Shown here one piece after another: positions 1 to 18,757 of a stretch of DNA of 64,000 bases (its first letter is position 1; each line of letters begins with the position of its first letter). The notes under the pieces were generated by a model that worked only from the letters and a program-made list of their open reading frames with translations, had not been told where the DNA came from and did not search any database. The DNA comes from Leptospiraceae bacterium (GTDB taxonomy: Bacteria; Spirochaetota; Leptospiria; Leptospirales; Leptonemataceae): positions 736,001-800,000 of the forward strand of contig JAVJNR010000003.1 in NCBI GenBank assembly GCA_040217195.1. Reading direction: 5' to 3'. A program made the position numbers and the translations under genes.

Positions 1-1
1 A

Positions 2-622
2 ATGCTCGTACTTCCGGGTCTGATTGTAATTGGCGCTCTGGTGGTTCAGAGTTATACACTGTTTGGGAACTGGTTACATCCATACTATCTCATGGATCGT
101 CCCGGTCACGATAACATTACAGGAGCCCTGGCCGCGAACCTATTCTCCCCAGCCCGGGGATTGTTCTTCTGGCACCCCATTCTGCTCTATTCGTTTGTAT
201 GGATGATTCGCTCCCCGGCCCATGGAACTCATTCTTCCATCTACGGAACTTTGCTCATTGTCTGCTTTCTGCATCTTCTGGCCGTTTCGGCCTTCAAGCA
301 CTGGTGGGGTGGCCACAGCATGGGGCCTCGGCTTACATCGGATCTTGTACCATTGCTCCTGTATTCGCTCATCCCGGCCATTCGCGAAATCAATCATTGG
401 AAGCGACCGGCCTTCACATTGAGCTTTATCCTGCTGGCTTTTCTGGGTATAGCGATGCACCTTAGAGCTGTCTTCGTCCCGGAGGTAGGTAAATGGAATC
501 TTGGACCGCCGGATGTAGACCGGGCTCCTAATAGGATCTGGAAAGACTCACCACCGATACTTAGCGGGGACAGAACGTTTCGCACCCTGCTCAAAATGCC
601 CGTGCCACCGAAGCCAGAATGA
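2..622 (+). CDS. Polytopic membrane protein, possibly GT-C-type glycosyltransferase-like (5' partial)
   Basis: Several hydrophobic helices; SPARGLF and WWGGHSMGPR motifs resemble membrane glycan-modifying proteins; runs off the window start. Confidence 0.5.
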   Translation: MLVLPGLIVIGALVVQSYTLFGNWLHPYYLMDRPGHDNITGALAANLFSPARGLFFWHPILLYSFVWMIRSPAHGTHSSIYGTLLIVCFLHLLAVSAFKHWWGGHSMGPRLTSDLVPLLLYSLIPAIREINHWKRPAFTLSFILLAFLGIAMHLRAVFVPEVGKWNLGPPDVDRAPNRIWKDSPPILSGDRTFRTLLKMPVPPKPE

Positions 623-773
623 TTGACCAGAACGAAAGTCCAGAGGTTAAGCCAGCAGATCACAGTTTACTCAACTGAAGGCTTGCAGGCCAGGACATGG
701 GTGCGATGCCCATTCCGAAATCAATACACCCCGGACTTCGCAATGGATTCCCAACGTCTTGTATGTTAAGCAA

Positions 774-2186
774 CTACTGAAATTGTGCCTTTCGCATCCG
801 GCTTTGCACAAGGCTGCGAAAACGGACTTTCTTTACCAGGGCATCAAAGTATACATTTTCCAGCCGATCCACCACAGAGTCCCACCCTGCCAGACTGGCT
901 ATTTCTCTGGCCCGCACTCGAATGGATTGAAAATCCAGATTGGAGACCGGACTGTTTGAATTTAACCTGGTCCCCATTCCTGGCTGTGCAATTGTTGCAA
1001 GCTTTCTGGCAAGTCCCAGAAAAGACTCTGGATCCATTTGTGATGCGATCAAAGCACTCTCTTCATCTTTCAGAAGTTGCCTTGCTGCTCCTCGATCATA
1101 GGCCAGAATAGCCAGGCCACTGGCAGCCGCCTCGGTGACTACGTTACCAAATGTATCTGTAAGACTGGGGAATAGAAATACGTCTGAAGAAGCATAGTGC
1201 TCCGATAGATCTTTTCCGGAAAGAAAGCCGGTGAAATACAGGTCCGGGTTTTCCCTTTCCAGACGATTACGCTCAGGTCCATCACCTACCAGAAGCATGC
1301 GTGCATTCGGAATTCTATTTTGAATCTCTCGAAAGGATTGGATAGCCAGTTCGATGTTTTTCTCCGGGGCCAGTCGTCCGGCGTACAATACCAGCAGGTC
1401 ATTTACTCCGACCCCCAGACTTTCGCGGAGCTCCGGATTCCTGTGCTCCGGCGAATAAGCCTGCAGATCTACGCCTCTTCCAATGACCGAAACCCTTTTG
1501 TATCCGGAGGCTAATAATTCGGATCTCATGCTTTCCGTAGGAACCAGTGTTCTTCTGGTCAGGTTATGGAATAATCGCAGGTATCTGGACACAGCTCGTC
1601 CCAGACCAGACATACCATAGTAGTCAAAGTACTGATCAAAGTGGGTGCGATAATCGCTTATCACCGGAATGCCACAGCTTCTGGCCGCAAGCATTGCGTT
1701 GAATCCCAGGGGCCCCTCAGTTATTATATGGACCAGGTCCGGTCTATGCTGGCGAAATCTGGACCTAAAGAAATGAGGGCTGGCCAATCCTACCTGAACC
1801 TCTTTGTAAAAGGGCATTCGCAATCCAATACATAGATGTTCGGTGGTACCTTCCCTGGCTTTTGAGTCATATGCTGGTCGGGAGGTTTCATTGGTTAAGG
1901 CAGAAACCCTTTGCTCTGATTCGATCGAAATACGGCGGAGACTGGATTTGCTTCGCGGGAAGAATCGACCGGAGATTGTCTTATAGGAGAGGCCGGTAAT
2001 TGAATCAAGAGTGAGGTCCAGACCTGGCGTTTGATCAGAAGACTGTGCCGGACGAAATACAGTCAATTCATGTCCTCTGTCTCGCATGCCCTGCATCATC
2101 CGATCCAGACTGCGAGAGACTCCATTTACTTCAGGCAGATGAGTTTCTGTAACCACGGAAATCCGTAGACGATTGGCCGCTGACAT
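774..2186 (-). CDS. Glycosyltransferase family 4 (GT-B)
   Basis: VTETHLPEVNGV N-terminus, LYAGRLAPEKN, FPSLTDTFGNVVTEAAASG. Start placed at ATG 2186 (ORF track begins at 2207). Confidence 0.9.
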   Translation of the reverse strand: MSAANRLRISVVTETHLPEVNGVSRSLDRMMQGMRDRGHELTVFRPAQSSDQTPGLDLTLDSITGLSYKTISGRFFPRSKSSLRRISIESEQRVSALTNETSRPAYDSKAREGTTEHLCIGLRMPFYKEVQVGLASPHFFRSRFRQHRPDLVHIITEGPLGFNAMLAARSCGIPVISDYRTHFDQYFDYYGMSGLGRAVSRYLRLFHNLTRRTLVPTESMRSELLASGYKRVSVIGRGVDLQAYSPEHRNPELRESLGVGVNDLLVLYAGRLAPEKNIELAIQSFREIQNRIPNARMLLVGDGPERNRLERENPDLYFTGFLSGKDLSEHYASSDVFLFPSLTDTFGNVVTEAAASGLAILAYDRGAARQLLKDEESALIASQMDPESFLGLARKLATIAQPGMGTRLNSNSPVSNLDFQSIRVRAREIASLAGWDSVVDRLENVYFDALVKKVRFRSLVQSRMRKAQFQ

Positions 2187-2502
2187 AAGAAATGTATGCT
2201 CACCCAACGCTACGATTCAATGAAAGAAATGTGTCATTCCTGTGTTTGAACTTACCTCTTAGCCATTTTTGGCGAATCGATTCAACAAAATCGTGAACCA
2301 ACTCGGGCATGGCAATCTGATTCTCCACTTATCGCATACTTCCAAAACGAATCTATGTACGGTTCATGTCATTTGCAAGACACTGAGCAATAAGCGAATG
2401 CATCCGGGCGCAGTCCGGAGGCATGCCTATATTTCTTTAATCGAACCCGACGCTGTGCGCCCTGGCAATGTTTCTTGCTTCTTGAACCACTTTCTTTCGA
2501 AT

Positions 2503-3843
2503 TCAGGCCAGTTTGTACACCGGCACCGCCTCTTTGCGACCGCGCACCTGAATGGGTTCAATCTCTGAGCCCAGAATTTCCATGCCTGCATTCTCTGCAT
2601 CTCGCCTTACTGTATCCGAAATAAGCAGAGCGGATTCGAACTTTTTATTCATCTGTTCCAGACGAGATGCAACATTTACCGTATCGCCTATAATTGTGTA
2701 CTCCTTTCTTCTGGAAGATCCAACGTTACCGGTTACGGCATCTCCTGCATGAAGGCCAATCCCCACTTTCGTTAGAGGAAAGTCCCTGGATTGATTCCAG
2801 GAATTCAGAGCATGTAGAATATCCAGGGAGGCCTGGATTGCATTTCGGGAATCCCTTCCGTCGGAGATCGGTGCTCCAAAGACAGCCATAAATCCGTCTC
2901 CCAGAAATTTGTTGATGATTCCTCTATTATTATTCACACAATCGATCATGAAATCAAAGAGCTGATTTAGGTATTGCACCACTTCAGACGGAGTACGATG
3001 TTCGGAAAACGCAGTGAAGTTGCGAATATCCAGAAACATTACGCAAACGTGTCTGGTTTCGCTTTCCAGATCCGTTTTTTGATCCAGCAGCTTATCCACT
3101 ACTTCCGGAGAAACATGCGCCCCAAACATTTCCACAACACGATTTCTCTCTTCCAGGGTGTTTAGAGATTCAAGAAATCCCTTTTTCAACTCCCGGGCCA
3201 CATAGCCCGCAACAGCGCCGGCCACAACAAACATCAGAATCTTTCCCAGATGGAAGGCTGGCATTGCCAGAATCATACCCGGCGAAATGGGTCCATCCAC
3301 CGGAAGCGTAAAGCCCACCAGCGCTGGCTGATAATAGATCCACAGAGCCGAGTATTCCACAGTAGCCACCAGGCCGGTAAAGATACAGAGCCGATAGTCC
3401 AGCCTCAATGTAGACAGCAATATAAAGAGAAAATAGGCATAGGTAGGAGGACTGTACAGTGCCTCCAGAGGATGAACCAGGTTCGTAAATGCCAGAATCA
3501 TGAAAGTTGGAATGCTGGTTTCAATCAAGGCATTGGCATAGCGGTGGCTGATCGGGACCATTCTTCCGCGCCTTAAGAAATAACGAAAGCCCATGAATGC
3601 AGCTATCTCATAGGCCAGGGCCACGGACAGGGTCAGAAATGCGAATCGAAGCTGCCATACCCGGAAATCTGCATCTTCCAGAAGGATTCTGGTAAATGTG
3701 CCCAGAATGAAAACAACTACAATGAGGCCAGCCAGTAGCATTGCCAGGATTCTGACCCGTCTGATTTCCGAATGCAGAATCTCTTTTTCAAAGGCTTCCT
3801 CGGCAGCTGAGAGTGGGTTGGCCTGTTTCCAGAATGGCATCAT
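2503..3843 (-). CDS. Membrane-bound class III adenylate/guanylate cyclase
   Basis: About 6 TM helices, then VMFLDIRNFT, NKFLGDG, IGLHAG, YTIIGDTVNVASRLE. Confidence 0.92.
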   Translation of the reverse strand: MMPFWKQANPLSAAEEAFEKEILHSEIRRVRILAMLLAGLIVVVFILGTFTRILLEDADFRVWQLRFAFLTLSVALAYEIAAFMGFRYFLRRGRMVPISHRYANALIETSIPTFMILAFTNLVHPLEALYSPPTYAYFLFILLSTLRLDYRLCIFTGLVATVEYSALWIYYQPALVGFTLPVDGPISPGMILAMPAFHLGKILMFVVAGAVAGYVARELKKGFLESLNTLEERNRVVEMFGAHVSPEVVDKLLDQKTDLESETRHVCVMFLDIRNFTAFSEHRTPSEVVQYLNQLFDFMIDCVNNNRGIINKFLGDGFMAVFGAPISDGRDSRNAIQASLDILHALNSWNQSRDFPLTKVGIGLHAGDAVTGNVGSSRRKEYTIIGDTVNVASRLEQMNKKFESALLISDTVRRDAENAGMEILGSEIEPIQVRGRKEAVPVYKLA

Positions 3844-3979
3844 GGCAGAATTTCTATCCGGGGTTTTTTTGGGTCAATGCGCTTTGATGCAGAAAAAAAT
3901 CAAAAATCTGCAACCGGATACCCGGCAAAGGTTCCTATGAATTGAGCCAGAAATAGGGCTCAATTGCAGGAGCGACAAA

Positions 3980-5128
3980 ATGATTAAGTGGAACGAAATA
4001 AACTGGCCCACCTTTCTATTCTTTATCTTCAGCCCCATTGGCGCAATAGCAGGTGTGGTTTATGTAGCAATGGAGATCGGATTTCATCCAGCTACCATTG
4101 CACTCGCTGTATTTATGATATTTGCCACCGGAATCGGAATTACCGGCGGGTATCACAGGCTTTTTTCGCACAAGAGCTATGAAGCATCAAAACTGGTGCG
4201 CTGGCTCTATGTTTTCTTTGGATCGGCTGCTCTGGAAATGAGCGTCATCGAGTGGGCCTACGACCATCGAAATCATCATCGGTACGTAGACCATGAAAAG
4301 GATCCGTATGCCATAACAAAAGGTTTCTGGCATGCCCATATTCTGTGGCTTTTTAGAAAGCGCGGAACCGGTAATCGTGAAGAAGTGGATCTAAATCTGG
4401 TTCAAGACCTCTGGAAAGATCCAGTACTGAGATTTCAGCACAGATTCTACATCCCTATTGCTCTTCTCACTTCCTTTCTATTTCCTGCCGTCGTAGCATC
4501 CCTCTGGGGAGACTTTATAGGCGGACTTTTAATTGCAGGTCTGGCCCGAACTGTCTGGGTGCACCAGGCAACCTTTTGCATCAATTCAGTATGCCATTTT
4601 CTGGGAACTCAGCCCTACTCGGACAAACATACAGCCAGAGATTCCTGGGTTACAGCTCTGGTAACTTATGGAGAAGGATATCATAACTACCACCATGAGT
4701 TTCCGGTAGATTATCGAAACGGTATTCGTAAATACCAGTATGATCCTACCAAATGGCTGATCTTCGCACTGAGCAAGCTGGGCCTGGTATGGAATCTGAA
4801 ACGCATTCCGGATGAGAAGATCCTGGCGGCCAAAATGGAAATGCGGGAAAAACAGCTAATTGCACTTTCGCAAAAGAAGGCCCAATCCACTGGCTTCGCA
4901 GAGGGCATTGCAGCTCTTAAAGAAAGCGGCGAGAAGACTCTGGTTCGAATACAGGACCGATTCGACGAGCTTGCAAAAAATCTCAAAGAGATGCGCAGAG
5001 AAAAGAAATCTCACACTGAAATGAAAAACATTCGCAAGCAACTGATTCGCACATACCGGCTCCACGAACAAAAAGCTGTGGAGCTCATGCGTCAGATTTC
5101 TTCTAAAGACCAGACTGCAGCTGCCTAG
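3980..5128 (+). CDS. Acyl-CoA (delta-9) fatty acid desaturase
   Basis: His boxes GYHRLFSH, HRNHH and GEGYHNYHHEFP; C-terminal helical extension. Confidence 0.92.
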   Translation: MIKWNEINWPTFLFFIFSPIGAIAGVVYVAMEIGFHPATIALAVFMIFATGIGITGGYHRLFSHKSYEASKLVRWLYVFFGSAALEMSVIEWAYDHRNHHRYVDHEKDPYAITKGFWHAHILWLFRKRGTGNREEVDLNLVQDLWKDPVLRFQHRFYIPIALLTSFLFPAVVASLWGDFIGGLLIAGLARTVWVHQATFCINSVCHFLGTQPYSDKHTARDSWVTALVTYGEGYHNYHHEFPVDYRNGIRKYQYDPTKWLIFALSKLGLVWNLKRIPDEKILAAKMEMREKQLIALSQKKAQSTGFAEGIAALKESGEKTLVRIQDRFDELAKNLKEMRREKKSHTEMKNIRKQLIRTYRLHEQKAVELMRQISSKDQTAAA

Positions 5129-5214
5129 GTCCGAATACTACTGGCTCGGGCAGGTTCCGGGCCAGAATCAATGAAATTGCAGATTTTCGGGAACCTCGTT
5201 GAAGGCTCCCACCG

Positions 5215-5244
5215 GAAAGGCCCCTCGGGGCCTTTCTTTTTTTT
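5215..5244 (+). terminator. Rho-independent terminator after the desaturase
   Basis: GAAAGGCCCC-TC-GGGGCCTTTC hairpin followed by a T8 run. Confidence 0.85.
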
Positions 5245-5393
5245 GCTGGTCAGGACTCACTTATGTCACAGACGGAATATAGAGTGTTCCCATGAAAACG
5301 CCAGAACTCAGAAGACTTCAGCCGGGCTTACCGGTGTCATCAACCACCAAATTAAGCCGCAGAACCGGCCATCCTTCCGATAATAAACAGGTA

Positions 5394-6479
5394 ATGCAGT
5401 TTCGTTTTCTGGATCTATTTGCAGGGATTGGTGGAATGCGCTTTGCGTTCGAAAAGGTTGGAGGCCAGTGTGTCTTCAGCTCGGAATGGGATCGTGCCGC
5501 GCAAAAAACCTATGAGGCCAATTTTGGTCATTTGCCCGAAGGCGATATTACAGCCATAGGAGCGGAAGACATTCCCGATGCGGACATTCTTGTGGGAGGA
5601 TTCCCCTGCCAGCCATTCAGTATTGCAGGAGTGTCAAAAAAGAATTCCCTGGGAAAGAAACATGGATTCGGCGATGAAACCCAGGGAACGCTATTCTTTG
5701 ACATTCTTCGTATTCTGGCTGTAAAGAGGCCTTCCGCCATTCTTCTGGAGAATGTGAAAAACCTCCGCAGCCATGATGGGGGAAAGACATTTGCAGTCAT
5801 TGTTGAAAAGTTGACAGAGCTGGGCTACCACCTGAACATCGAAGTCTTAAATGCATCGGCCGTTCTGCCGCAAAACCGGGCGCGAATCTTCATCGCAGGA
5901 TTCCTGGACCCTCGGGCCGCCGCTGCCTTTCAATTCCCACTGGCCCATGAATTCCCACTTCCCGACTATTTGAAGCTAAGACCAACTCGCTGGGACGATG
6001 CAATCCAGGACCGCTTAAGCTATAAACCCAGACTGGGCGATATCCTGGAAAAAGCAGTGAATCCAAGATACACTCTTTCGGACCATCTTTGGAAATACCT
6101 TCAGGATTACCGGGATAAACATCGCAAAGCCGGCCATGGATTTGGATTTGGACTATGCGGCCCGGCCGATATTGCCCGCACTCTATCAGCCAGATATTAC
6201 AAAGATGGATCAGAGATCCTGATTAAACAGCGCCCCTCCAGAAGAAATCCCGGAGCGAACCCAAGAAGACTTACTCCCAACGAATGTAGAAGGCTGATGG
6301 GCTTTCCAGAGGATTTCCAGATCGTGGTTTCAGATACTCAGGCCTACAAACAATTCGGAAACTCTGTGGCTGTGCCGGTTGTTAGCGCCATTGCATCAGG
6401 CATGGCGAAGGCCCTTCAATCAGTGAGCGCTTCCGGCAAAAAATGGAAAGTAGGGGCGAAACTGGCATCAGCGTCATAG
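5394..6479 (+). CDS. dcm: DNA (cytosine-5)-methyltransferase, Dcm/EcoRII-like (probably CCWGG)
   Basis: DLFAGIGG, catalytic GFPCQPFS followed by GVSKKNSLG..HGF..ETQGTLFFD, ENV, TRD RTLSARYYKDGSEILI, YKQFGNSV. An in-frame upstream ATG exists at 5292. Confidence 0.93.
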   Translation: MQFRFLDLFAGIGGMRFAFEKVGGQCVFSSEWDRAAQKTYEANFGHLPEGDITAIGAEDIPDADILVGGFPCQPFSIAGVSKKNSLGKKHGFGDETQGTLFFDILRILAVKRPSAILLENVKNLRSHDGGKTFAVIVEKLTELGYHLNIEVLNASAVLPQNRARIFIAGFLDPRAAAAFQFPLAHEFPLPDYLKLRPTRWDDAIQDRLSYKPRLGDILEKAVNPRYTLSDHLWKYLQDYRDKHRKAGHGFGFGLCGPADIARTLSARYYKDGSEILIKQRPSRRNPGANPRRLTPNECRRLMGFPEDFQIVVSDTQAYKQFGNSVAVPVVSAIASGMAKALQSVSASGKKWKVGAKLASAS

Positions 6480-7159
6480 GCCCAGGAACTCTTAGATCCA
6501 TTCATCGGAAGCTAATGGACTGGTTTCGAGGCTCCAGGAGGGACTATCCCTGGCGTCAAACTCATAACTGGTTTCATCTGGTCATTGCGGAGCTAATGCT
6601 CCGCCGCACCCGTTCCGATCAGGTGGCCGCCGTATACGAGCGCTTTGTCAAAAAATATAAGAATGCCCGGGCAGCAAGCAAGGATCCGGAAGGTGTTCAG
6701 GAAACCATTCGTTCCCTGGGGTTAAACTGGCGAAATGAACAGATTCAAGAAACGATCCAGTATCTAAGCCATAGGTATGGCAATAGGCGAAAGCTCAGTC
6801 CAGATGAAGATCTAAAGAGTACTCCGGGTGTGGGCGATTATTGCAATGCCATGCTAAGAAGTCGTCTATTTCAGGAACCGGAACCGGCTATCGATTCCAA
6901 CGTCGCTCGTATTTATTGCAGACTTCTGGATGTGGAGTTTCATCCAGAAATGCGTCGAAAAGCCTGGCTTAAGCAGCTGGCCAGAGACTATATGGATACT
7001 GCCGTACAATCCAAAGAGCTAAACGACCCATTTGAGATTAACCTGGCACTTCTAGATCTGGCCGCATTGGTATGTAAGCCTGGAATCCCGAAATGCATGG
7101 AATGTCCAATTCGCAATCATTGCAAGACCGGGCTTTCTCGAAACTCCAGGATTTCTTAG
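6443..7159 (+). CDS. HhH-GPD DNA glycosylase with 4Fe-4S loop, Mig/T:G-mismatch type
   Basis: RDYPWR, ELMLRRT, PGVGDY, AIDSNVAR, NLALLDL, C-X6-C-X2-C-X5-C; no MutY C-terminal domain; overlaps the 3' end of dcm. Confidence 0.85.
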   Translation: MESRGETGISVIGPGTLRSIHRKLMDWFRGSRRDYPWRQTHNWFHLVIAELMLRRTRSDQVAAVYERFVKKYKNARAASKDPEGVQETIRSLGLNWRNEQIQETIQYLSHRYGNRRKLSPDEDLKSTPGVGDYCNAMLRSRLFQEPEPAIDSNVARIYCRLLDVEFHPEMRRKAWLKQLARDYMDTAVQSKELNDPFEINLALLDLAALVCKPGIPKCMECPIRNHCKTGLSRNSRIS

Positions 7160-8394
7160 CCTGCGCTGATCATGCCGGCAGCCACTGTGGCATTGCTGGA
7201 CTCATCGACCAGGATGAAACTTCCGGTGCGACGATTCTTGGAATATCTATCAAAGCTCAAATTCTCTGCCGTTTTAATCCTTACCAGGCCAATGTCGTTT
7301 AGCTCCATACTATCCGAGGCCTGCTTCTCCAGACTCTTGATATCGTAAACCGCTTCAATGGATTGAACCACTGCCATCGACCTGCGAGTGGTTTGCTGCA
7401 GCAGGAATCGATTTCTGGACTGTAGCTTCGTTTGATCCATCCAGCAAAGATGGGCCACAAATTCCCGACCGGTCAGAGCCGGATCATCATTTGAAACGAT
7501 CATATCCCCGCGAGAAACATCAATATCATCCTCCAACTGAATGGTGATGCTCATTGGCGCAGAAGCTCTCTCCAGGGGTTCGCCACCCAGCTCCAGGGAT
7601 TTGATTCTACTCTTTTGGCCGGAAGGCAGCAAGGTCACTTCCTGACCCGCTTCCAGAACTCCGGACTGCAATTGCCCGGCATAACCTCGATAGTCATGGT
7701 ACTGCTCAGAATGGGGGCGAATCACCCATTGCACAGGGAAACGAGCCGGACCCACATCTTTGCGATGCGGCAACTCTTCCAGAACTTTCAATAGAGGCTG
7801 ACCTTTAAACCAGGGCATATGCTCCGATTTTCGAGCAACGTTTTCACCGGAAAGTGCTGCCACTGGAATATAAATCACATCGTCCAGATTCATTCTAGCT
7901 TTGATGCCTTCGTATTCCTGTACAATTTCATTGAATCTCTCTTCGCTGTATTCTACCAGATCCATTTTGTTGATCGCAAGAATTACATGTGGAATGCCCA
8001 GAAGAGAAGCCAGAAAACTATGACGTCTGGTTTGCTCTGCAATACCCTGGCGCGCATCGATGAGTATCACCGCCGCATCCACATTGGAGGCCCCTGTAAC
8101 CATATTTCGAGTATACTGCACATGCCCTGGAGCATCTGCGATAATGAACTTCCTCTTTTCCGTGCTGAAGTATTTATAAGCCACATCGATAGTAATTCCC
8201 TGCTCTCGTTCGGCCTTCAGTCCATCTGTAAGAAGAGCCAGGTTTACTGTATCGGATCCGCTTTTTTCGCTGGATCGCTCTATAGCTTCCACCAGGTCTC
8301 GAGCCACGGCTCCACTATCGAATAACATTCTACCGATCAATGTTGATTTTCCATCATCTACGGATCCGGCTGTGATAAATCTTAATAAATCCAT
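7156..8394 (-). CDS. cysN: Sulfate adenylyltransferase subunit 1 (GTPase)
   Basis: LRFITAGSVDDGKSTLIGR, EREQGITIDVAY, DAPGH, NKMD; no fused APS kinase domain. Confidence 0.96.
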   Translation of the reverse strand: MDLLRFITAGSVDDGKSTLIGRMLFDSGAVARDLVEAIERSSEKSGSDTVNLALLTDGLKAEREQGITIDVAYKYFSTEKRKFIIADAPGHVQYTRNMVTGASNVDAAVILIDARQGIAEQTRRHSFLASLLGIPHVILAINKMDLVEYSEERFNEIVQEYEGIKARMNLDDVIYIPVAALSGENVARKSEHMPWFKGQPLLKVLEELPHRKDVGPARFPVQWVIRPHSEQYHDYRGYAGQLQSGVLEAGQEVTLLPSGQKSRIKSLELGGEPLERASAPMSITIQLEDDIDVSRGDMIVSNDDPALTGREFVAHLCWMDQTKLQSRNRFLLQQTTRRSMAVVQSIEAVYDIKSLEKQASDSMELNDIGLVRIKTAENLSFDRYSKNRRTGSFILVDESSNATVAAGMISAG

Positions 8395-8477
8395 TTTATT
8401 CTCCTTTTAGAAAAGCTTGCCAGTGCGTAATGAGCCGTTAACACTCATAAACGAAAGAAACATTACGCCTCTGCGCA

Positions 8478-9410
8478 CTAGAAGTAACCTGCTCGCTTGC
8501 GCTCTTCCATGGCCGCTTCACTCCGGCGATCATCGATTCGAGCACCCCTTTCAGTAATGTCTGCAGATTTGATTTCATGAATAATATGTTTGATTTCCAC
8601 TGCATCGCTTTCAACGGCTGCCGTGCAGGTCATATCACCTACGGTTCGGAATCGAACATTTAGTTCCTGCACCTCTTCATCTGGGTCTACCTGAATAAAA
8701 TCGGACGCAGGGAAAAGATGCCCCATACGACGAATCAGTTTTCTTTTATGCGAAAAGTACAGCGATGGAAGGTCCATACCTTCTTTTAGAATATAATTCC
8801 AGACATCCAGTTCGGTCCAGTTGCTGATAGGAAATACCCGAACGTTCTCTCCTGGATGAATCTTACCATTGTAAAGGTTCCATAATTCAGGGCGCTGCAG
8901 ACGAGGATCCCATTGTCCGAATTCATCTCGCACGGAGAAAACTCGCTCTTTGGCCCTGGCCTTCTCTTCATCACGTCGTGCGCCGCCTATGCAGGCATCA
9001 AAGCCATTTTCTTCTATCGTATCCAGCAATGTGACGGTTTGCAGGCTATTGCGACTGGCATACTTGCCGGTTTCTTCTTTAACTCTACCTTTATCAATAG
9101 ATGCCTGAACGGATCCCACGATCAAACGCTCGCCTAACTGGTTGACCATATTGTCTCGAAACTCTATTGCTTCCGGGAAGTTGTGACCAGTATCGATGTG
9201 CACCAGAGGAAAAGGAAACTTGCCTGGCCGGAAAGCCTTCTCCGCCAACCGTACCAGAGTAATGGAATCCTTTCCGCCGCTGAATAACAATGCCGGTCGA
9301 TCGAATTGCGCAGCCACTTCGCGCATGATGTAGATCGCCTCAGCTTCCAGCTCCTCCAGGTGGGTTAATGTTGCCTTATCAAGTCCGTTATCTGCCTGTA
9401 CTGCTGTCAT
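8478..9410 (-). CDS. cysD: Sulfate adenylyltransferase subunit 2
   Basis: LFSGGKDS, GGARRDEEKARAKER, VRFRTVGD, MEERKRAGYF terminus. Confidence 0.97.
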   Translation of the reverse strand: MTAVQADNGLDKATLTHLEELEAEAIYIMREVAAQFDRPALLFSGGKDSITLVRLAEKAFRPGKFPFPLVHIDTGHNFPEAIEFRDNMVNQLGERLIVGSVQASIDKGRVKEETGKYASRNSLQTVTLLDTIEENGFDACIGGARRDEEKARAKERVFSVRDEFGQWDPRLQRPELWNLYNGKIHPGENVRVFPISNWTELDVWNYILKEGMDLPSLYFSHKRKLIRRMGHLFPASDFIQVDPDEEVQELNVRFRTVGDMTCTAAVESDAVEIKHIIHEIKSADITERGARIDDRRSEAAMEERKRAGYF

Positions 9411-9429
9411 AGTATTCTCCTCTGGATCG

Positions 9430-11103
9430 CTACTCTGCGATCAAAGCCTGAAATGGCTCCAGTCCAATTCGATTGCTGAAGTCTCCAAAGCTTTCGCCTT
9501 CTTTTCTATCCTTCTTCCATAAGGTGAACATTTCATCCACCAGAGATGGCAATCGCTCCACTGCCACGGTATCGGATATTTCCTGCACCAGACGGGTGCC
9601 TTCCGGGTTTCCACCCACATAAACTGCATAAATTCCTGCGCTTCGACCAACAAAGGCCAGCTCCGCCGAGTATGGTCGCGCGCAACCATTGGGACATCCT
9701 GTCATTCGCACAACCGGAGGTGAGTCTGTAAGTCCATGCTTGTCCAGGCTGCCCTGAATATCTGCCAGCAGATCCGGTAGGAACCTCTCCGCCTCGGCAA
9801 GAGCCAGGCCGCAGGTAGGTAATGCAGGACAGGCCAGAGCACGACTGTACACGGAGCCTTTAGGTGAAATAGCAAGCTGCTTATCTGCAAAGATAGCCTC
9901 AAACTTTTCCTTTGCACTCTGCGGAAGTCCCATAAACACCAGGTCCTGATCCGGAGTGATCTGAACTTCAGGCTGAAAGGTTTCAACAGCTTCTCGAATG
10001 GCCGATTTAATTGGCTCATTTTCTCGGTCAATAATCCGCCCGGAAAGGATGTGCAGCCCAAAACTCAAACTTCCATCTCTTCGCTCATGCCATCCGAGAT
10101 AGTCTACGAAATCCCAGGTAGGTTCATCGATTAAGTCCAGGGTAAAATCCAGATGTTTTTCTACTTCTGCGCGAAACCAGTCCAGACCGCGATCTTCCAG
10201 AAGGTATTTCAATCGGGCATGTTTTCTATCTTTGCGATCCCCATGTTCTTTTTGTACGGCGATGATCGCTTCGCATACAGGGATCATTCTTTCTACGGAG
10301 GACCAGCCCAGGTAGGAAGCCAATCTGGGATACGTTTTTGCATTTCGGTGGTTTTTCCCCAGGCCTCCACCAACATAATAATGATAACCGGTGATTTCAC
10401 CATTTTCGAACGTTGCTGCCAGGGCCAGATCGTTGGTGAATAGATCTATGGAATTATCGCCAGCGCGGGTCATGGCAATCTTGAACTTTCGCGGCAAATA
10501 GTTGGTTCCATAGATTGGATCCTCCTGCTCGCTCTGTGGATCCACTCTCTCTCCATCCAGCCAGATTTCTACGTATGCATTGGATTTAGCTGCAAAATGA
10601 TCTGAAATGAGATTGGAAGGCTCATCCAATTTTGCCAGCTCCGGATCCCCCAGTGGATTGGGAGCCTGGGTAACGTTTCGAACCACATCGCCGCAGGCAC
10701 AGATAGTACTGAGCATGGAGTCATGGATTCCTTTGATCAGGTCCTTCATCTTATGCTTCAATACTCCATGGTACTGAATACTCTGTCGTGTTGTGAGCCG
10801 GAGACCGCCATTTCCGTACAGATCTGCCAGCCTGTCGAATTCCAGGTACTGTTTGGCTGTCATTCGACCGCCGGGGATTCTTCCACGAATCATCATGGAA
10901 TAAGCTTTCTCCATGCCTCCGCCGCTGCGGCTTCGGGCATCCCTATCATCCTGCTGATAGATTCCATGAAACTTCAAAAGCTGGAGAGAATCCTGGTTAA
11001 AGTTCGGTGCATCATTGGCCAACTCTTCGGAAAGAGTGCCTCGCAGCCCCTGAGAGCTTTCCTTGATTTTTTCGACTTTTGATACCTGTGGTTTCTCGGA
11101 CAT
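9430..11103 (-). CDS. cysI: Assimilatory sulfite reductase hemoprotein (siroheme/4Fe-4S)
   Basis: KFHGIYQQDDRD, ACGDVVRN, YLPRKFK, ACPALPTCGLA, MTGCPNGC. Confidence 0.95.
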   Translation of the reverse strand: MSEKPQVSKVEKIKESSQGLRGTLSEELANDAPNFNQDSLQLLKFHGIYQQDDRDARSRSGGGMEKAYSMMIRGRIPGGRMTAKQYLEFDRLADLYGNGGLRLTTRQSIQYHGVLKHKMKDLIKGIHDSMLSTICACGDVVRNVTQAPNPLGDPELAKLDEPSNLISDHFAAKSNAYVEIWLDGERVDPQSEQEDPIYGTNYLPRKFKIAMTRAGDNSIDLFTNDLALAATFENGEITGYHYYVGGGLGKNHRNAKTYPRLASYLGWSSVERMIPVCEAIIAVQKEHGDRKDRKHARLKYLLEDRGLDWFRAEVEKHLDFTLDLIDEPTWDFVDYLGWHERRDGSLSFGLHILSGRIIDRENEPIKSAIREAVETFQPEVQITPDQDLVFMGLPQSAKEKFEAIFADKQLAISPKGSVYSRALACPALPTCGLALAEAERFLPDLLADIQGSLDKHGLTDSPPVVRMTGCPNGCARPYSAELAFVGRSAGIYAVYVGGNPEGTRLVQEISDTVAVERLPSLVDEMFTLWKKDRKEGESFGDFSNRIGLEPFQALIAE

Positions 11104-11175
11104 TCTTGCCTGCCTGTACTCCTGTTTTGTGACAGAGAAGTAATCCCATGGGCAAGATCAAGAAAAAAAGACAGT

Positions 11176-11198
11176 ATTCCTATCAAAAAAGTAGGAAT
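11176..11198. promoter_or_regulatory. Palindromic operator ATTCCTA-N9-TAGGAAT upstream of cysI
   Basis: Perfect 7-bp inverted repeat about 73 bp upstream of the cysI start; a near-identical copy precedes cysH. Confidence 0.7.
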
Positions 11199-11525
11199 TA
11201 AGCGGAATCCGCCTGAGCGGCCTTCTGAGTATACTATGAGGCTATTCTGAGGCTAATCTGAACAATGGGAAAATAGACAGGATGGAAAAATAGGAGCAGA
11301 AAGTTACCTCTTTGCCGGCAAAAGGGGCGGAGTAAATACTAAATTCCACGACTGAAGGGCCTGCTGGATCATCCTGTGGCAGGCTCGCAGACAGCGCGGC
11401 AGTCAGCATTGCAGAAGCGAGCCAGGGGTCGCTCGGTCCGGCAAAGTCCTATGTCCCTGCCCAGGAGGATCTGAATATTTTAGAACCAGGTGCGCTGAGA
11501 CCTGGACTGCGCATTCCATTCAGAT

Positions 11526-12635
11526 TCAAATTCTAAGTGGCACAGAGAAGGATACGATGACTCCGGTCAGAGAATACCTGAATCCGTCGCGGTTGAAGAT
11601 GGGCCCACCCAGAGCTACACGAATAGTAGCATACTCCCAGACATACTCTCCATGAAGAAAATAGGAAGGGACAAAATCCTCCCGGAAATCGACTTGAAGG
11701 TTGGCCAGACCTACCGCTCCCACAGCTTCCAGTGGAGTGAGCAATAGATCTCCAGGGGCCTGACCGCTGGTCAGGTAGTTAATCAGAAATAGCGTTGTAA
11801 TATCGGTTTTGATATCCCCTCGGGCCATCAAATAGGTTCCCATCCGTTCCAGGCCGCCCGGCTGCTGCAACCCAAGTAGTAGAGATCCGTACACAGGATC
11901 TCCTCGAGTAAAGTCGATGCTACCCTGCACAATGGTATTGAATTGCAGGTCCCGGGTCATTGTGGCTCGATCCTGGGAAAGAAAGAGAGGAGCCAGAGTC
12001 AAACCGCTATCCAGCGCCGCCGTACCCCTCAAGCGCACCACGGACGGTCCATACCCCAGACCAAAACGAAATCCTTCTTCCTCGCCATTTACGTTGTAAT
12101 ATACCACTGGAACCGTAAGTGCATAGTATCCCCTCATTCTGGTTCCCAGATCCTCAATGACAGTTTGAGACGATTCGCTTCCATCGTCGGCAGTAACCCT
12201 TTCCTGGTAACTTTGATACCCCAGATCAAAGCTTCGAGTATGAGCCAGTAAATGAACTCCCCAGTGTTGGGTAATTGGGTAGTCCCTGGATTTTATATCC
12301 AGCATCCAGTCCAGTTTGGTCCATGGGTTTTCATTTACAAGAGTTGCATTGCTTCCTGAACGATAACCCAGTCCGGAAATACTGACGTTGCTGGTTGATA
12401 CCAGAAAGCCAGGATTTAGCCGGACCCAGTAATCATCCATAACCTCTTTTCTTTTTGCTTCTCGTTCTTCCCGCTCCCGCTGTCTTCGTTCGGCATCTTC
12501 CTGCTTTTCGCGCTCAGTCTGTTCCGGCTCTTGAATCAAGGTTGGATCAAAGGCCTGAGCCGGGATAGCCGTGCTGCATAACAAACTAGAAGTGAGCACC
12601 GATAAAATGATAAGATTTTTATATCTGAATTGCAT
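11526..12635 (-). CDS. Exported hypothetical protein, possibly outer-membrane beta-stranded
   Basis: Signal peptide (PAQA), charged coil, amphipathic beta-strand-like segments at both ends. Confidence 0.6.
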   Translation of the reverse strand: MQFRYKNLIILSVLTSSLLCSTAIPAQAFDPTLIQEPEQTEREKQEDAERRQREREEREAKRKEVMDDYWVRLNPGFLVSTSNVSISGLGYRSGSNATLVNENPWTKLDWMLDIKSRDYPITQHWGVHLLAHTRSFDLGYQSYQERVTADDGSESSQTVIEDLGTRMRGYYALTVPVVYYNVNGEEEGFRFGLGYGPSVVRLRGTAALDSGLTLAPLFLSQDRATMTRDLQFNTIVQGSIDFTRGDPVYGSLLLGLQQPGGLERMGTYLMARGDIKTDITTLFLINYLTSGQAPGDLLLTPLEAVGAVGLANLQVDFREDFVPSYFLHGEYVWEYATIRVALGGPIFNRDGFRYSLTGVIVSFSVPLRI

Positions 12636-12722
12636 CCTGTCTAACTCCCTGCGCTTGTCTTACACGAAATGGCAGTCGATACTGCAAACCTTCTATTCCT
12701 GGGTTCTCAACCAGAGAAATGC

Positions 12723-13343
12723 CTAATCCGATTGCGGCTTCAACCGAAGACTTCCTCTCTGTCCCATACTTTCCGCCGCTGACACGATTGAAAGACTCAG
12801 ACTCAGTCGAGCTCTACCATATTGCCCATTCTGTTCGCGATAATTGAGCACCGGAAAAGCCACAGAACTATTCCAGGTTACTCTTTCCAGGTCCGCAAGA
12901 ATACGTACGGACTTTCTAGTTTGCGGATTTATGATCTGAATTGTGCTTCTGTGTATTTGCGTTTCCGTGTAGGGGATAACGGAGAAGGAAATCAGGGAAA
13001 GTATGACCCAGCCCATTCTCCAATCTTCCTCCTCGGTCCCTGTATCCACACTGCCATATTTTTCCAGTAATAATACAACATCGCAGGATAGCCCCTGTTG
13101 CTGCTCTCTCTGCACTTCCAGGTCAGCCCCAAGAGGTATCAACGTATGACCTCTTGCCTGTAATAGATTCACGACTTCGTAATGCCTGGTCATTCCCAGA
13201 GTGCAAACATTGAGCGAACGGACACTTCGCTCCGGGCTTTCCAGAAGAATACCTTCAGAGGACTCCACCCGCGGATAGTATATCGCCGAAGCACAACTTC
13301 CCAGAAACAATGCGAGAAGACAAAAGCAGCCGAACCGAATCAT
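12723..13343 (-). CDS. Hypothetical lipoprotein
   Basis: Lipobox LGSC; internal hydrophobic segment followed by VIPY; ATGA overlap with the upstream gene. Confidence 0.65.
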   Translation of the reverse strand: MIRFGCFCLLALFLGSCASAIYYPRVESSEGILLESPERSVRSLNVCTLGMTRHYEVVNLLQARGHTLIPLGADLEVQREQQQGLSCDVVLLLEKYGSVDTGTEEEDWRMGWVILSLISFSVIPYTETQIHRSTIQIINPQTRKSVRILADLERVTWNSSVAFPVLNYREQNGQYGRARLSLSLSIVSAAESMGQRGSLRLKPQSD

Positions 13344-14095
13344 GGAGTACGCCCCTGAAAATTGTGGGGCAACTGGTATTGGAAATCCAGGCCCTCCAGT
13401 AAATCATTGTTATCCTGACTATAGCGAACCCTTCTATCAAACCGGATTTCCCACTCAGAGCCGTAGCTGAGCCTCAATGGATAAGATCCATCGGGTACGG
13501 CGCAGGTAATTCGGGCCCTGGTCTTCCTTTCTGGCCACAACCAGAGAGCCGGTCCCTCATGGGGCAATGTTCCAGGTCCTGCCGGCGCATAACCGAACCG
13601 ACAGCGGCCAAGCCAGATTCCATCCTTAAGATGGGTTTCCACCATAAAATCGGATTGGGCCAGATCATCCATCCCCAGCTCCAGCCGCAAAAGACCAACT
13701 GTTGATTGAAATTTTTCATAATTGATCTGGGCTTTTTCTTCAGGCTTCGCACGAGACAGGCCTGTATCGCGCATCATAGTGATAAATTCCGATCTCATAT
13801 TCTGGTCATTGGTGCTACAGTTGAAGATACGTAAGCCATTACCCAGATGCTCCAGTTCGAGATGAATATGAAGCTGATGCTGACCAAAGTAATGGTAATC
13901 CCTGTGATAAAGCTCCTCGGCGCCCAGAAGCCGGGCCCTGAAGGATTGACCGCTCCATTCGCGTTCTGCGGGGACATAAAGTCGGCCTGTGCGATGTATG
14001 CCACTGGCCGTGGGCGAGCAACTTACCAGGACTGTTCCCAGCATCAGAATTACAGCCATGAAACCAGGGTGTCTTGTTAGGGGAGCTACATGCAT
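13340..14095 (-). CDS. Hypothetical lipoprotein
   Basis: Lipobox LVSC; AGAGG RBS; coupled to the downstream ORF. Confidence 0.6.
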   Translation of the reverse strand: MHVAPLTRHPGFMAVILMLGTVLVSCSPTASGIHRTGRLYVPAEREWSGQSFRARLLGAEELYHRDYHYFGQHQLHIHLELEHLGNGLRIFNCSTNDQNMRSEFITMMRDTGLSRAKPEEKAQINYEKFQSTVGLLRLELGMDDLAQSDFMVETHLKDGIWLGRCRFGYAPAGPGTLPHEGPALWLWPERKTRARITCAVPDGSYPLRLSYGSEWEIRFDRRVRYSQDNNDLLEGLDFQYQLPHNFQGRTP

Positions 14096-14286
14096 TTATA
14101 CCTCTCTTAGATCGCCAGCTCCCGGGCGCGAAAACCATAGATACATTCCAGCAATCGGTGAGCTATTTGAAAAACCCGGATGAAAGCGAAACGGAGCGCA
14201 ACGTACGTAGGCCCCTGGTTAATAAAAGTATGAGACGGGTAAGCGAAAGGTTGATTAGTGATATTGTTGGCCCGGTGCACCAAACA

Positions 14287-14312
14287 CAAAAGGGGGCCTT
14301 CACCCCCTTTTG
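14287..14312. terminator. Intrinsic terminator downstream of the ferredoxin (bidirectional form)
   Basis: CAAAAGGGGG-CCTTCA-CCCCCTTTTG. Confidence 0.75.
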
Positions 14313-14339
14313 TCCAGAAAAATAGCTTACTTAGTTGGT

Positions 14340-14621
14340 CTATAGACCGTAGTATTCATAGTTTTTCTTGATATAGGATTCCCATTTTTCCGGTACTTCA
14401 TCCTCCGGAAAAATGGCCTGCACTGGACAGGCTGGTTCGCATGCTCCGCAATCGATACATTCTTCTGGATTGATGTAGAGCATTTTACCTTCCAGTTTGC
14501 CCTCTTCGTAGCCTTTTGCGGGCCACTCCTCTTTCGTAGGGTGAATGCAGTCCACAGGACATACGTTCACGCAGGAAGTATCACATACTCCCTCACAGGG
14601 CTCGGTAATAATAAATGCCAT
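14340..14621 (-). CDS. Dicluster (7Fe/8Fe) ferredoxin
   Basis: MAFIITEPC..CDTSCVNVCPVDCI and ECIDCGACEPACP; AGGAGG RBS. Confidence 0.95.
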   Translation of the reverse strand: MAFIITEPCEGVCDTSCVNVCPVDCIHPTKEEWPAKGYEEGKLEGKMLYINPEECIDCGACEPACPVQAIFPEDEVPEKWESYIKKNYEYYGL

Positions 14622-14739
14622 ATTTTCCTCCTGGATATGGTCTTCTGACCAAACAGAAACTCCAGGGTCAAATTAGTGGTGCCCATCCAATTTTTCCACC
14701 ACAATCAAACCGGGACCTGCAAAAACGAAATTCCGGAAT

Positions 14740-16275
14740 TCAGCCGGCCCGGCCGGCCATCCTATCCTCCCTGGGGGACAATGGCTCCAGGGTTACCAGG
14801 TCTTGCCTCACTAGATTGTAAGCATTTAAATCCAGATTCCTGGTTGCCTGGCGGAAAGATAAAGTAGACCCGGGCCACAATACTCGGTTCTCCCCTTTTT
14901 CATTCAGATACCAGCTTATACAACCGCTGGTCCATTTGGTATTTTTCATCCTTTCCTGAATGGTCTTATTGAATGTCCGGTCATGTTCGCTCCTAACATC
15001 CAGATAATGATCCGGATATTTGCGAAGGGTCTTCAGATAGTCCGCCAGATAATTGGACTGAGATTCCATCATATGTACCATGGAGTTGTGTCCCAGGCCA
15101 GTATTTGGGCCCAGAAAGAATAGTAGATTGGGAAAGCCTGTGATAGTCGTTCCCAGATAAGCATGCATCCCATTGAGAGACCAGTATTCCTTTAAGCTCT
15201 GTCCACCAGGTCCTAGAATATCCAGATCCAGGTTCCGATGCATGTTCGCCACATGAAATCCGGTGCAAAAGATTAGTGCATCTGCCCGAGCCCGTTCGCC
15301 ATTGCTGGCGATCACCTGATTGCCTTCAATTCGAGCTACTGATGAGTCTATTACCCGGGCATGGTCTGTGGCAAGAGCCGGATAATAATCATCAGACAAT
15401 AGAACTCTCTTGCAGCCTATTCGATAATCCGGAGTGAGCTTTTGAATGAGCTCTGGATCCCGAATGGCTTTCTTTATATGTCTGAGAGCCACCCGCCTCG
15501 CCAGATGATTCAGAGTTTCGCTTCCATAGATAACTGGACCGGCAATAAGTTCATTGTAAGCGTAGATCTTCAAACGATGGAGCTTCTGAAGCAATGGAAA
15601 GAGATCAAACAATCCCTGCAGTAAGGATCCCACCGGTTTGTCCTTTCGGGGAGTAACATAGGCCGCTGTCCGCTGAAATAGATTCAGCTCCTTCACTTCA
15701 TCAATTATTCCTGGAACTACCTGTATGGCGCTGGCCCCGGTTCCCACCACAGCCACTCTCTTTCCTCGCAGGTCTACATCATGATTCCAGCGAGCGGAAT
15801 GAAAGACCGGACCCGGGAATTCTCTTAATCCGGGTATATCAGGTATAGAAGGGCGATTCAACGGGCCTATGGCCAGAACCAGAATTCGAGCTTCCAGTTC
15901 CATCCCCTTAGTTTTGATTTTCCAGCGGCCGGAAACGGAGTCGAATCTAGCTTCTTGCACTGCGCTGTTAAAACGAATATGCTGCCTTAGCCCCAGATTT
16001 CTGGAACAGTCCTGCAAGTACTCCAGTATTTCAGGCTGGGTGGCATATAATCGTGACCAGTTACTCCTTGGTGCAAAGGAATAAGAATATAGATTGGATT
16101 TCACGTCGCAGGCGCAACCCGGATAGGTATTTTCTCTCCAGGTGCCACCCACTTCATCTGCCTTTTCCAGAATCAGAAACGATTCGCATCCTTCTCTTTT
16201 CAACCGCGCTGCAGCAGCCATCCCGGAAAACCCGGCACCTACAATGATTACTTCCAGAACATTCTCACTCTGCAT
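14740..16275 (-). CDS. Flavin-containing Baeyer-Villiger-type monooxygenase
   Basis: GAGFSG, GGTWRENTYPG, FxGxxxHSARW fingerprint, GTGASAIQ. Start at ATG 16275 with a GAGGTG RBS. Confidence 0.92.
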   Translation of the reverse strand: MQSENVLEVIIVGAGFSGMAAAARLKREGCESFLILEKADEVGGTWRENTYPGCACDVKSNLYSYSFAPRSNWSRLYATQPEILEYLQDCSRNLGLRQHIRFNSAVQEARFDSVSGRWKIKTKGMELEARILVLAIGPLNRPSIPDIPGLREFPGPVFHSARWNHDVDLRGKRVAVVGTGASAIQVVPGIIDEVKELNLFQRTAAYVTPRKDKPVGSLLQGLFDLFPLLQKLHRLKIYAYNELIAGPVIYGSETLNHLARRVALRHIKKAIRDPELIQKLTPDYRIGCKRVLLSDDYYPALATDHARVIDSSVARIEGNQVIASNGERARADALIFCTGFHVANMHRNLDLDILGPGGQSLKEYWSLNGMHAYLGTTITGFPNLLFFLGPNTGLGHNSMVHMMESQSNYLADYLKTLRKYPDHYLDVRSEHDRTFNKTIQERMKNTKWTSGCISWYLNEKGENRVLWPGSTLSFRQATRNLDLNAYNLVRQDLVTLEPLSPREDRMAGRAG

Positions 16276-16345
16276 CCGATCCACCTCATAGTTGAATTCT
16301 TTTTTCAAACCATGTGAAGTATAGATCAAACACGGGTGTTAAACA

Positions 16346-16383
16346 ACCGGTCTTATAATACAGTCCCTGCATCTTATAAGTCC
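16346..16383. promoter_or_regulatory. Candidate AraC-family binding site (GGWCTTATAA inverted pair)
   Basis: ACCGGTCTTATAATA at 16346 and inverted TCTTATAAGTCC at 16372, between the divergent monooxygenase and AraC genes; matching copy at 18697. Confidence 0.5.
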
Positions 16384-16433
16384 TACCGAAAAAGACTTGT
16401 GCCCGTGCTTCAGAAAATACCTCATCTAGCGAG

Positions 16434-17561: not shown

Positions 17562-17750
17562 CGTAAAGCGAACGACCACTGATAGCCCGGCATTAATAAA
17601 TCCTAAATCGAGAAGTGATAGGCTCTGGAAATCTTCGCTGCAGATCCGGGCATTAGAAAATGCATCCCGTGCCGGTTCGAGATGAACCGGGATGCTTCAA
17701 AGTTTCATGACCGAAAGACAGATAAACAGATTCTATGATACAGCAGAATT

Positions 17751-18626: not shown

Positions 18627-18696
18627 AATTCCTCCCTTCGGATCTAATCCAAATGGCTGTTAGAGGCAATTATGCACTGAATCCGAAGAAACTGCG

Positions 18697-18711
18697 ACCG
18701 GACTTATAAGA
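18697..18711. promoter_or_regulatory. Candidate AraC-family binding site, second copy
   Basis: ACCGGACTTATAAGA, 13/15 identical to the 16346 copy and at the same 71-bp distance from its ATG. Confidence 0.5.
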
Positions 18712-18757
18712 AATGGGTCTGAATCCGAGGATTTCGGACTTCTGCAAAAGAGAAGAA

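Follow-up and report, generated by a model that had tools for sequence, protein, structure and literature searches.

A Dcm-type methylase gene overlapping a Mig-type glycosylase gene in spirochaetes, with evidence of an actively maintained CCWGG footprint in genomes without detected Vsr

INTRODUCTION

An active Dcm cytosine-5 (C5) methylase without repair should erode its CCWGG sites to CTWGG. Very-short-patch repair is usually described as a pathway of the Vsr nuclease, and a 64,000-nucleotide stretch of the genome of a Leptospiraceae bacterium (contig JAVJNR010000003.1; hereafter the window) raises the question of whether an enzyme of another kind can take the place of Vsr. Here, a gene for a Dcm-type C5 methylase overlaps a gene for a HhH-GPD glycosylase resembling the mismatch glycosylase Mig. 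An earlier reading of the letters alone (the sequence-only reading) had proposed that the two form a glycosylase-based very-short-patch repair module. Our analysis of the genome holding the window (G000; 93.7% complete) and of its relatives supports this proposal through the Mig-like residues of the glycosylase, its position outside the MutY clade, the linkage of the two genes in 25 of 27 carriers, 22 of which had no detected Vsr, and a CCWGG footprint. We put at roughly 0.85 the probability that the pair is a domesticated Dcm-Mig module of Leptonemataceae-type spirochaetes that repairs T:G mismatches at C[T]WGG. Coordinates count along the window.

RESULTS

CCWGG footprint in G000

G000 showed the reverse of the expected erosion: CTWGG was depleted and CCWGG was in excess, and the effect was specific to the inner C. 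Among tetramers, CTAG, TTGG, and TAGG were the most depleted, and CCAG and CCTG were among the most enriched. Overall, synonymous sites gave 105 CTTGG versus 6860 CCTGG. At synonymous third positions in a C[T/C]WGG context in 2785 called genes, T/C counts on the sense strand were 18/2329 for CTTGG/CCTGG and 22/2638 for CTAGG/CCAGG, and those on the antisense strand were 73/4081 and 32/8537, respectively; contexts one base removed from C[T/C]WGG were more weakly depleted. The synonymous footprint was strongest at W (log2 odds ratios, −5.0 and −6.6) over S (−2.9 and −3.4). Noncoding DNA carried it as well, with observed/expected ratios (O/E) of 0.17 for CTTGG and 0.12 for CTAGG, and the outer-C variants TCWGG were not depleted (O/E, 1.11 and 2.43). 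The 5-mer profile resembled that of Escherichia coli K-12 (50 kb), in relaxed contexts too: values in E. coli and G000 were 1.94 and 2.39 for CCWGG, 0.28 and 0.30 for CTTGG, and 0.04 and 0.08 for CTAGG. Of about 209 variant places, 40 were visible in four DNA runs over positions 1 to 20000, a number insufficient to test the CCWGG spectrum.

Distribution of the module and its footprint among relatives

Of the 42 genomes of the family, 27 had the glycosylase, 30 had a Dcm-like methylase, and 7 had Vsr. All 27 glycosylase carriers also had a Dcm-like methylase, which in 25 lay upstream on the same strand, so that the expected linkage proved to be conserved; a single gene of 1.8 to 2 kb stood between the two in three of these 25, and one of the two exceptions (G019) is a fragmented assembly. 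Vsr was not found in 22 of the 27 carriers. The methylase occurred without the glycosylase in G006 (58% complete), G021, and G047. In G047 there was a dcm-vsr-EcoRII cluster. G021 had a stand-alone dcm-like gene, an unlinked stand-alone vsr, no Mig orthologue (L056 and L069), and a footprint, possibly because Vsr has naturally taken the place of Mig or because a loss is recent. Twelve of the 42 genomes had no dcm, mig, or vsr, and none of 16 sister-family genomes had an orthologue of the glycosylase (best matches, 25 to 32% identical). The orthologue loci belong to metagenome-assembled genomes labelled Leptospiraceae, Leptospirales, Leptonemataceae, or Spirochaetia.

Relatives were scored on CTTGG alone because Leptospiraceae lose CTAG for another reason (log2 score; 4 to 49 kb sampled per relative, the 20-kb samples, including that of G045, being small). 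Scores were negative in all 27 carriers (−1.2 to −6.05, weakest in G016 and G015) and in the methylase genomes without the glycosylase (G021, −2.15; G047, −2.63; G006, −3.34). The footprint was absent in 10 of the 12 relatives lacking all three genes (−0.06 to +3.06), and the 13 sister-family genomes sampled out of 16 scored −0.17 to +2.61. GC-matched controls were G042 (48% GC) and Leptospiraceae at 45 to 47% GC. In a RecA tree (single gene, quick method, G016 and G046 left out), gene-less genomes were nested among carriers in at least three separate places, so the footprint contrast does not go back to a single event.

CTAG depletion was rejected as evidence since several Leptospiraceae without the module were also depleted (O/E, 0.11 to 0.26); at L116 to L122, L126 to L127, and L131 to L134 (five genomes with O/E in that range), CTAG was strongly depleted and CTTGG was not. 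A CTAG methylase exists in Leptospira.

Several further observations were made in these genomes. In three of the carriers with vsr (L070, L071, and L072), this gene adjoined a different, non-Dcm C5 methylase. One genus had a response-regulator/GGDEF/EAL-like gene on the opposite strand between methylase and glycosylase (L160, positions 4021 to 5811), which breaks the overlap; its footprint was among the strongest (−3.5 to −5.1). Sampled GC content was 45 to 64% in module carriers versus 26 to 48% in genomes without the module; biased T:G repair could contribute to the higher GC of carriers, with genome reduction as a confounder. Synonymous T/C counts in the CTTGG context were biased in the reverse direction in G007 (25/0), G008 (39/2), G020 (49/1), G023 (10/0), and G040 (23/0), which could reflect CCWGG erosion after loss of repair or restriction avoidance.

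Mutational record in three genomes

Whether the footprint is still being maintained was assessed in 134 three-way orthologues of G000, G005, and G004, none of which had a match to Vsr. On the G000 branch, control synonymous C had changed to T at 1738 of 4810 and 909 of 2794 sites, and in conserved CCWGG contexts the inner C had changed at 1 of 142 (Fisher P = 8e-25); a stricter window held 141 sites, of which 139 kept the inner C in all three genomes. On the G000 lineage, the outer C had changed to T at 39 of 107 sites (background, 36%). The W position took all bases. Where just a single genome had the context and both others carried T, C was found in 8 of 10 cases (background, ~29%; P = 0.001). 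To produce this pattern, a process must recognize the CCWGG context and resolve T:G in favor of C:G. Conversion of CTWGG to CCWGG by Vsr has been described (PMC2715241; 10.1101/070839).

It is improbable that the glycosylase is context-blind for T:G/U:G, or not the cause, and that another factor (a UDG-superfamily protein, MutS/MutL acting with the methylase, or a missed vsr) makes the footprint. Candidates do exist, in that G000 has two UDG-superfamily genes and MutS, and a vsr could be missed in assemblies that are 67 to 95% complete. Against this, Vsr went undetected in most carriers and in G000 by tblastn (best E value, 0.12), and the footprint tracks the module across relatives; moreover, a context-blind enzyme would not stabilize the methylated C about 50-fold over other synonymous Cs (1/142 versus 35%). 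NucS was not found in G000 either. Xth is present there, as are five PF00730 genes, which include a separate LQQT-type MutY and an Nth. A DUF559 match was considered as a hidden Vsr and rejected, since in the only such match the domain is inserted within a type I HsdM. In the HsdM gene at L227 (positions 193 to 2289), a copy of the short repeat PSPRSPLP stands on either side of the inserted DUF559 nuclease-like domain.

Very unlikely, too, is a bystander glycosylase beside a footprint left over from an ancestral Vsr or produced by selection to retain CCWGG. Vsr does occur in the family, since G021 and G047 have it, together with a footprint, and lack the glycosylase. Yet about 35% of control synonymous Cs have changed since the Vsr-less lineages of G000, G005, and G004 split and the inner C has not, and selection for the motif would also have held the outer C and W, which turn over freely.

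Class of the glycosylase

The glycosylase matched PF00730 (HhH-GPD) and fell far below the MutY cutoff (TIGR01084; 116 versus 286.5 bits); its predicted model (pLDDT, 93) has the catalytic fold shared by MutY and Mig. In an alignment of 195 sequences that included Mig.MthI from plasmid pFV1 and E. coli MutY and Nth, E50, L53, R54, R55, Y133, D151, N153, L201, and D205 of the glycosylase corresponded to E42, L45, R46, R47, Y126, D144, N146, L187, and D191 of Mig, with S58 at the position of A50 and Y35 at that of F27. The residues that discriminate MutY (Q41, Q42, V45, and Q182) were replaced by R54, R55, S58, and L201. Judged by these residues, the pocket would be of the Mig type, with a small residue at A50, a hydrophobic one at L187, Arg at R46/R47, Tyr at Y126, and an aromatic one at F27. 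Exchange of A50 and L187 has been described to turn Mig into an adenine glycosylase (PMC2714593). The protein ends 11 residues past its last Cys, without a C-terminal MutT-like domain, and has Tyr133 where E. coli Nth has its catalytic Lys.

All of the features listed by the sequence-only reading were thus present: LRRT (residues 53 to 56), S58, PGVGDY (with Y133), NLAL (with L201), an intact iron-sulfur cluster loop (FCL) motif, and the missing MutT-like domain. Two of them failed as marks of the Mig type. Tyr after the HhH is found in G000's own MutY and in all MutY-type rows except E. coli, and has been noted in Bacillus MutY (PMC2714593); the FCL motif is carried by G000's own MutY too.

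A quick IQ-TREE phylogeny (SH-aLRT support only; 113 rows, with every second database protein; one frame-broken plasmid row and two partial proteins left out) grouped the glycosylase with 16 orthologues in a 17-row clade (SH-aLRT, 100). This group lies outside the MutY clade (35 rows; SH-aLRT, 99), into which G000's own MutY falls. The anticipated placement apart from MutY and Nth was recovered; a sister relationship to Mig.MthI was not. Homologues do bear the label A/G-specific adenine glycosylase, the mislabelling that had been predicted. The glycosylase also matched a PADLOC "type II nicking endonuclease" model (221 positions). W96, R171, and R172 are conserved throughout the clade and absent from MutY, which makes them candidate DNA contacts; prediction of a methylase-glycosylase complex scored 0.00 and was counted neither for nor against. 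A truncated second MutY, or a ROS1-kind demethylase excising 5-methylcytosine (5mC) in concert with the methylase, is hardly tenable: the best sequence and fold matches are MutY and plant HhH-GPD enzymes that excise 5mC exist, but the adenine determinants V45 and Q182 are Ser and Leu here, the oxoG-binding domain is absent, a true MutY is encoded elsewhere in the genome, Y133 is not the lyase Lys, and neither activity would deplete CTWGG.

The methylase

The segments GVSKKNSLGKKHGFGDETQGTLFFD and RTLSARYYKDGSEILI, on which the assignment to the Dcm/EcoRII-like group had been based, were present as described. The methylase matched PF00145 (E value, 1.4e-89), its best solved relatives were the Dcm-type entries 3lx6 (294 bits) and 3me5, with the recognition segment as part of the match, and DrmMII scored best among PADLOC models (E value, 8e-135). 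C5 methylase motifs I, IV, VI, VIII, IX, and X were intact and conserved in 17 aligned homologues. Congeners shared 85 to 87% identity, with 163 synonymous versus 46 to 54 nonsynonymous codon differences. The score for the enteric Dcm subfamily (PRK10458) was 354.5 bits against a cutoff of 710, a long N-terminal part being missing. The frame ends at 6479, and the claimed start at 5394 is possibly 34 codons late: the open frame reaches back to an ATG at 5292, and an in-frame N-terminal extension starting with MK is also found in three congeners, so 5292 may be the true start.

CCNGG enzymes share the Dcm-type recognition segment, which alone therefore does not fix W against N. A CCNGG target, suggested by low TCGG and high CCGG, was ranked below CCWGG as the footprint peaks at W. 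From the recognition segment and the footprint together, we infer that the methylase sets 5mC on the inner C of CCWGG.

The methylase had been called an orphan, which holds locally and not genome-wide. A second Dcm-like methylase overlaps an EcoRII-type endonuclease (EcoRII-N plus EcoRII-C) on contig C8 of G000 (L006; 60.6 to 62.8 kb), and such a pair is also present in G002, G003, G004, and G006 (nuclease identity, 76 to 82%); having no repair gene of its own, the pair on C8 may rely on the glycosylase of the window. Contig C9 of G000 (L008; 82 kb, 53% GC) carries phage-like genes, a small C5 methylase, and an adenine methylase-like gene; its CTAG O/E of 0.05 and CCWGG footprint of −2.84 suggest a long-resident prophage or plasmid.

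Organization of the locus

The positions reported earlier for both open reading frames and their overlap were borne out (Table 1). Overlaps of like kind join the two genes in four congeners, and translational coupling is probable; by analogy, the overlap may keep levels of the repair enzyme low and coordinated with those of the methylase. As had been stated, no restriction endonuclease or vsr adjoins the pair, whose neighbors are a fatty acid desaturase and a convergent CysN-like GTPase. The hairpin after the desaturase gene suggests that the pair is a separate transcription unit; this evidence is weak alone because four terminator-like sites occur in the region versus 2.9 expected. No restriction enzyme was detected among 46 flanking proteins scanned (44 of 71 candidate open reading frames from 12 orthologue loci plus two from the window), and the flanks of orthologue loci are housekeeping genes (fliG, recR, cysN, and others). 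The nuclease or defense genes that would mark a type II restriction-modification (R-M) or DISARM locus did not adjoin the pair. Sulfate assimilation genes (sulfite reductase-, CysD-, and CysN-like; positions 7156 to 11103, minus strand) converge on the glycosylase gene with a 4-bp overlap, and the CysN neighbor is retained within the genus.

Table 1. Features of the methylase-glycosylase locus, in window coordinates
Feature	Position	Strand	Remark
Terminator-like hairpin and T run	5214..5247	+	3' of upstream desaturase gene
Dcm-type DNA (cytosine-5) methyltransferase	5292..6479	+	361 aa from ATG 5394 / 395 aa from ATG 5292
Catalytic Cys72 (GFPCQ) of methylase	5607..5609	+	Invariant in 17/17 aligned homologues
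Dcm/EcoRII-type target-recognition segment RTLSARYYKDGSEILI	6177..6224	+	Aligns to RTLSARYYKDGAEILI of 3lx6 and 3me5; conserved in homologues
Gene-gene overlap, 37 bp	6443..6479	+	From sequence
Mig-type HhH-GPD [4Fe-4S] mismatch glycosylase	6443..7159	+	238 aa, without MutT-like domain
E50-LMLRRTR-S58 of glycosylase	6590..6616	+	Catalytic Glu; R54/R55 = Mig R46/R47, MutY Q41/Q42; S58 = Mig A50, MutY V45
Catalytic Asp151 of glycosylase	6893..6895	+	Mig D144; E. coli MutY D138
L201 of glycosylase, thymine-pocket determinant	7043..7045	+	Mig L187; MutY Q182
FCL motif C211-C218-C221-C227	7073..7123	+	Spacing C211-x6-C218-x2-C221-x5-C227

Pairing of Mig-like and C5 methylase genes elsewhere

Mig beside a C5 methylase has reportedly been known since 1996, and the rarity implied for the pairing was overrated. 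Across GTDB, a C5 methylase lay within 6 kb of the Mig-like gene at 72 of 80 loci (49 of the 52 with 3 kb on both sides), and vsr was found at none of the 80; five of six plasmid matches inspected also had a C5 methylase beside the Mig-like gene. The pairing is therefore general.

The inspected loci elsewhere were mostly mobile or defense-linked, with non-Dcm methylases. They share the gene pairing with the window, which differs from them in its housekeeping flanks and in the lack of restriction enzymes among the flanking proteins scanned. Several mobile Dcm-type Mig loci had no local CCWGG footprint (CCTGG/CTTGG counts: L194, 23/24; L215, 2/12; L216, 11/29; L220, 7/19).

A footprint was found in the DNA around Mig-like genes, mostly beside non-Dcm C5 methylases, at L163, L184, L187, and L192 (Chloroflexaceae type), L167, L171, and L188 (Ktedonobacteraceae), L197, and L165. 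Pooled CTTGG O/E was 0.32 to 0.47 at these loci and 0.10 at L165, where no methylase is in the locus; Vsr was found in one of five of these genomes. These loci possibly represent an independent origin of Vsr-free CCWGG repair.

DISCUSSION

Several observations weigh against the proposed repair module. At the level of distribution, the methylase and glycosylase genes of G017 are unlinked, on different contigs, and five glycosylase carriers also have vsr. G016 carries the module with a weak footprint (log2, −1.2 and −1.0) and none at called synonymous sites (14 T, 53 C; log2 odds ratio, +0.31), the carrier G015 is similarly weak (−1.27), and the module-free genomes G053 (−1.52) and G056 (−0.89) have negative scores, on low counts at 26 to 28% GC. 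Kin are not independent in the contrast between carriers and gene-less genomes, and loss is confounded with base composition because the lineages of loss are mostly AT-rich and reduced. As for the enzyme, Mig.MthI is not its sister, the short LxRT proteins, Mig.MthI among them, forming an unresolved radiation in the 113-row quick tree; in raw similarity the enzyme scores higher with Geobacillus MutY (107 bits) than it does with Mig.MthI (87 bits), and MutY also came first in the Foldseek ranking for its model. The position-specific record in lineages without a Vsr match nevertheless leads us to prefer a Dcm-Mig repair module.

Three known systems bear comparison with this module. Mig.MthI (PDB 1KEA; plasmid pFV1 of Methanothermobacter), described as active on T/G and U/G (PMC2714593; PMC9945173), is likewise a HhH-GPD protein of ~220 to 240 aa with a [4Fe-4S] cluster and no C-terminal domain. 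It shares the nine aligned residues given above, differing at A50 (Ser here) and F27 (Tyr here), and its gene is near that of a C5 methylase. It differs in having ~31% identity to the glycosylase and in its setting: the gene lies on a plasmid beside a complete R-M system whose nuclease is of the NgoPII family, and it is divergent from the methylase gene at a distance of two genes, whereas that of the window is chromosomal, overlaps a Dcm-type methylase gene, has no adjoining nuclease, and comes with family-wide occurrence and a genome-wide CCWGG footprint. We take the neighboring MthTI system to be specific for GGCC; the pFV1 record shows only the NgoPII-family nuclease. E. coli Dcm-Vsr shares with the window an orphan CCWGG-type methylase, an overlapping downstream repair gene (by 20 bp in E. 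coli and 37 bp here), and a near-identical 5-mer footprint, but Vsr is a nicking endonuclease stimulated by MutS/MutL and the partner here is a base-excision glycosylase of unrelated fold. MutY is alike in its catalytic fold, Glu/Asp catalysis, FCL motif, and highest raw similarity, and it is set apart by LQQT, V45, Q182, its MutT-like domain, and the subfamily and clade results given above.

In the mechanism that we propose, the methylase would place 5mC on the inner C of CCWGG, and deamination or misinsertion would yield T:G. The coupled glycosylase would flip out and excise T from T:G in and near the C[T]WGG context, apurinic/apyrimidinic endonuclease, polymerase, and ligase would restore C, and the methylase would then remethylate it. 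Like E. coli Vsr, the glycosylase would be blind to the difference between a deaminated 5mC and a correct T opposite a misinserted G. Because the enzyme could not separate these two origins of T:G, the inner C would be frozen and CTWGG converted to CCWGG, and such over-repair would drive T to C and reshape synonymous codon use genome-wide. In our judgement, context specificity probably comes from the glycosylase's own contacts; a hand-off from the methylase is a plausible, less favored source.

The enzyme class, its partnership with C5 methylases, and the gene pairing alone are already known. The new element is the evidence that in Vsr-less genomes such a Dcm-Mig pair has been domesticated and goes with a CCWGG footprint that resembles that of E. 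coli and is actively maintained, which gives a CCWGG-directed repair pathway unusually strong in vivo support. We found no literature report of a bacterial dcm-mig module or of a Vsr-free CCWGG footprint, subscription papers and supplements being outside the coverage. One survey describes very-short-patch repair as the sole pathway reported to mend 5mC deamination in stationary phase and scores genomes by the presence of vsr (10.1101/070839). If the Dcm-Mig reading is true, genomes counted as having a C5 methylase without repair for lack of vsr would often have been wrongly scored, and the context specificity of uncharacterized Mig enzymes could be deduced from 5-mer footprints. The locus draws attention to a large set of proteins that carry a wrong MutY annotation, supplies a possible reagent in its candidate context-selective T:G glycosylase, and makes testable how a HhH glycosylase reads context, whether DNA is handed from methylase to glycosylase, and what share biased repair has in codon use.

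On balance, we favor a further-reaching form of the Dcm-Mig reading, in which a CCWGG-specific or methylase-delivered Mig glycosylase is the complete base-excision equivalent of Dcm-Vsr. It would be a core, vertically inherited pathway of the family and a directional T-to-C mutator that removes ~98% of synonymous CTTGG options, with a possible parallel origin in Chloroflexota. With the glycosylase as the probable cause of the footprint, the locus would provide population-scale evidence that mesophilic bacteria can have the work of Vsr done at its own motif by a base-excision enzyme unrelated to it, with an identical mutational imprint.

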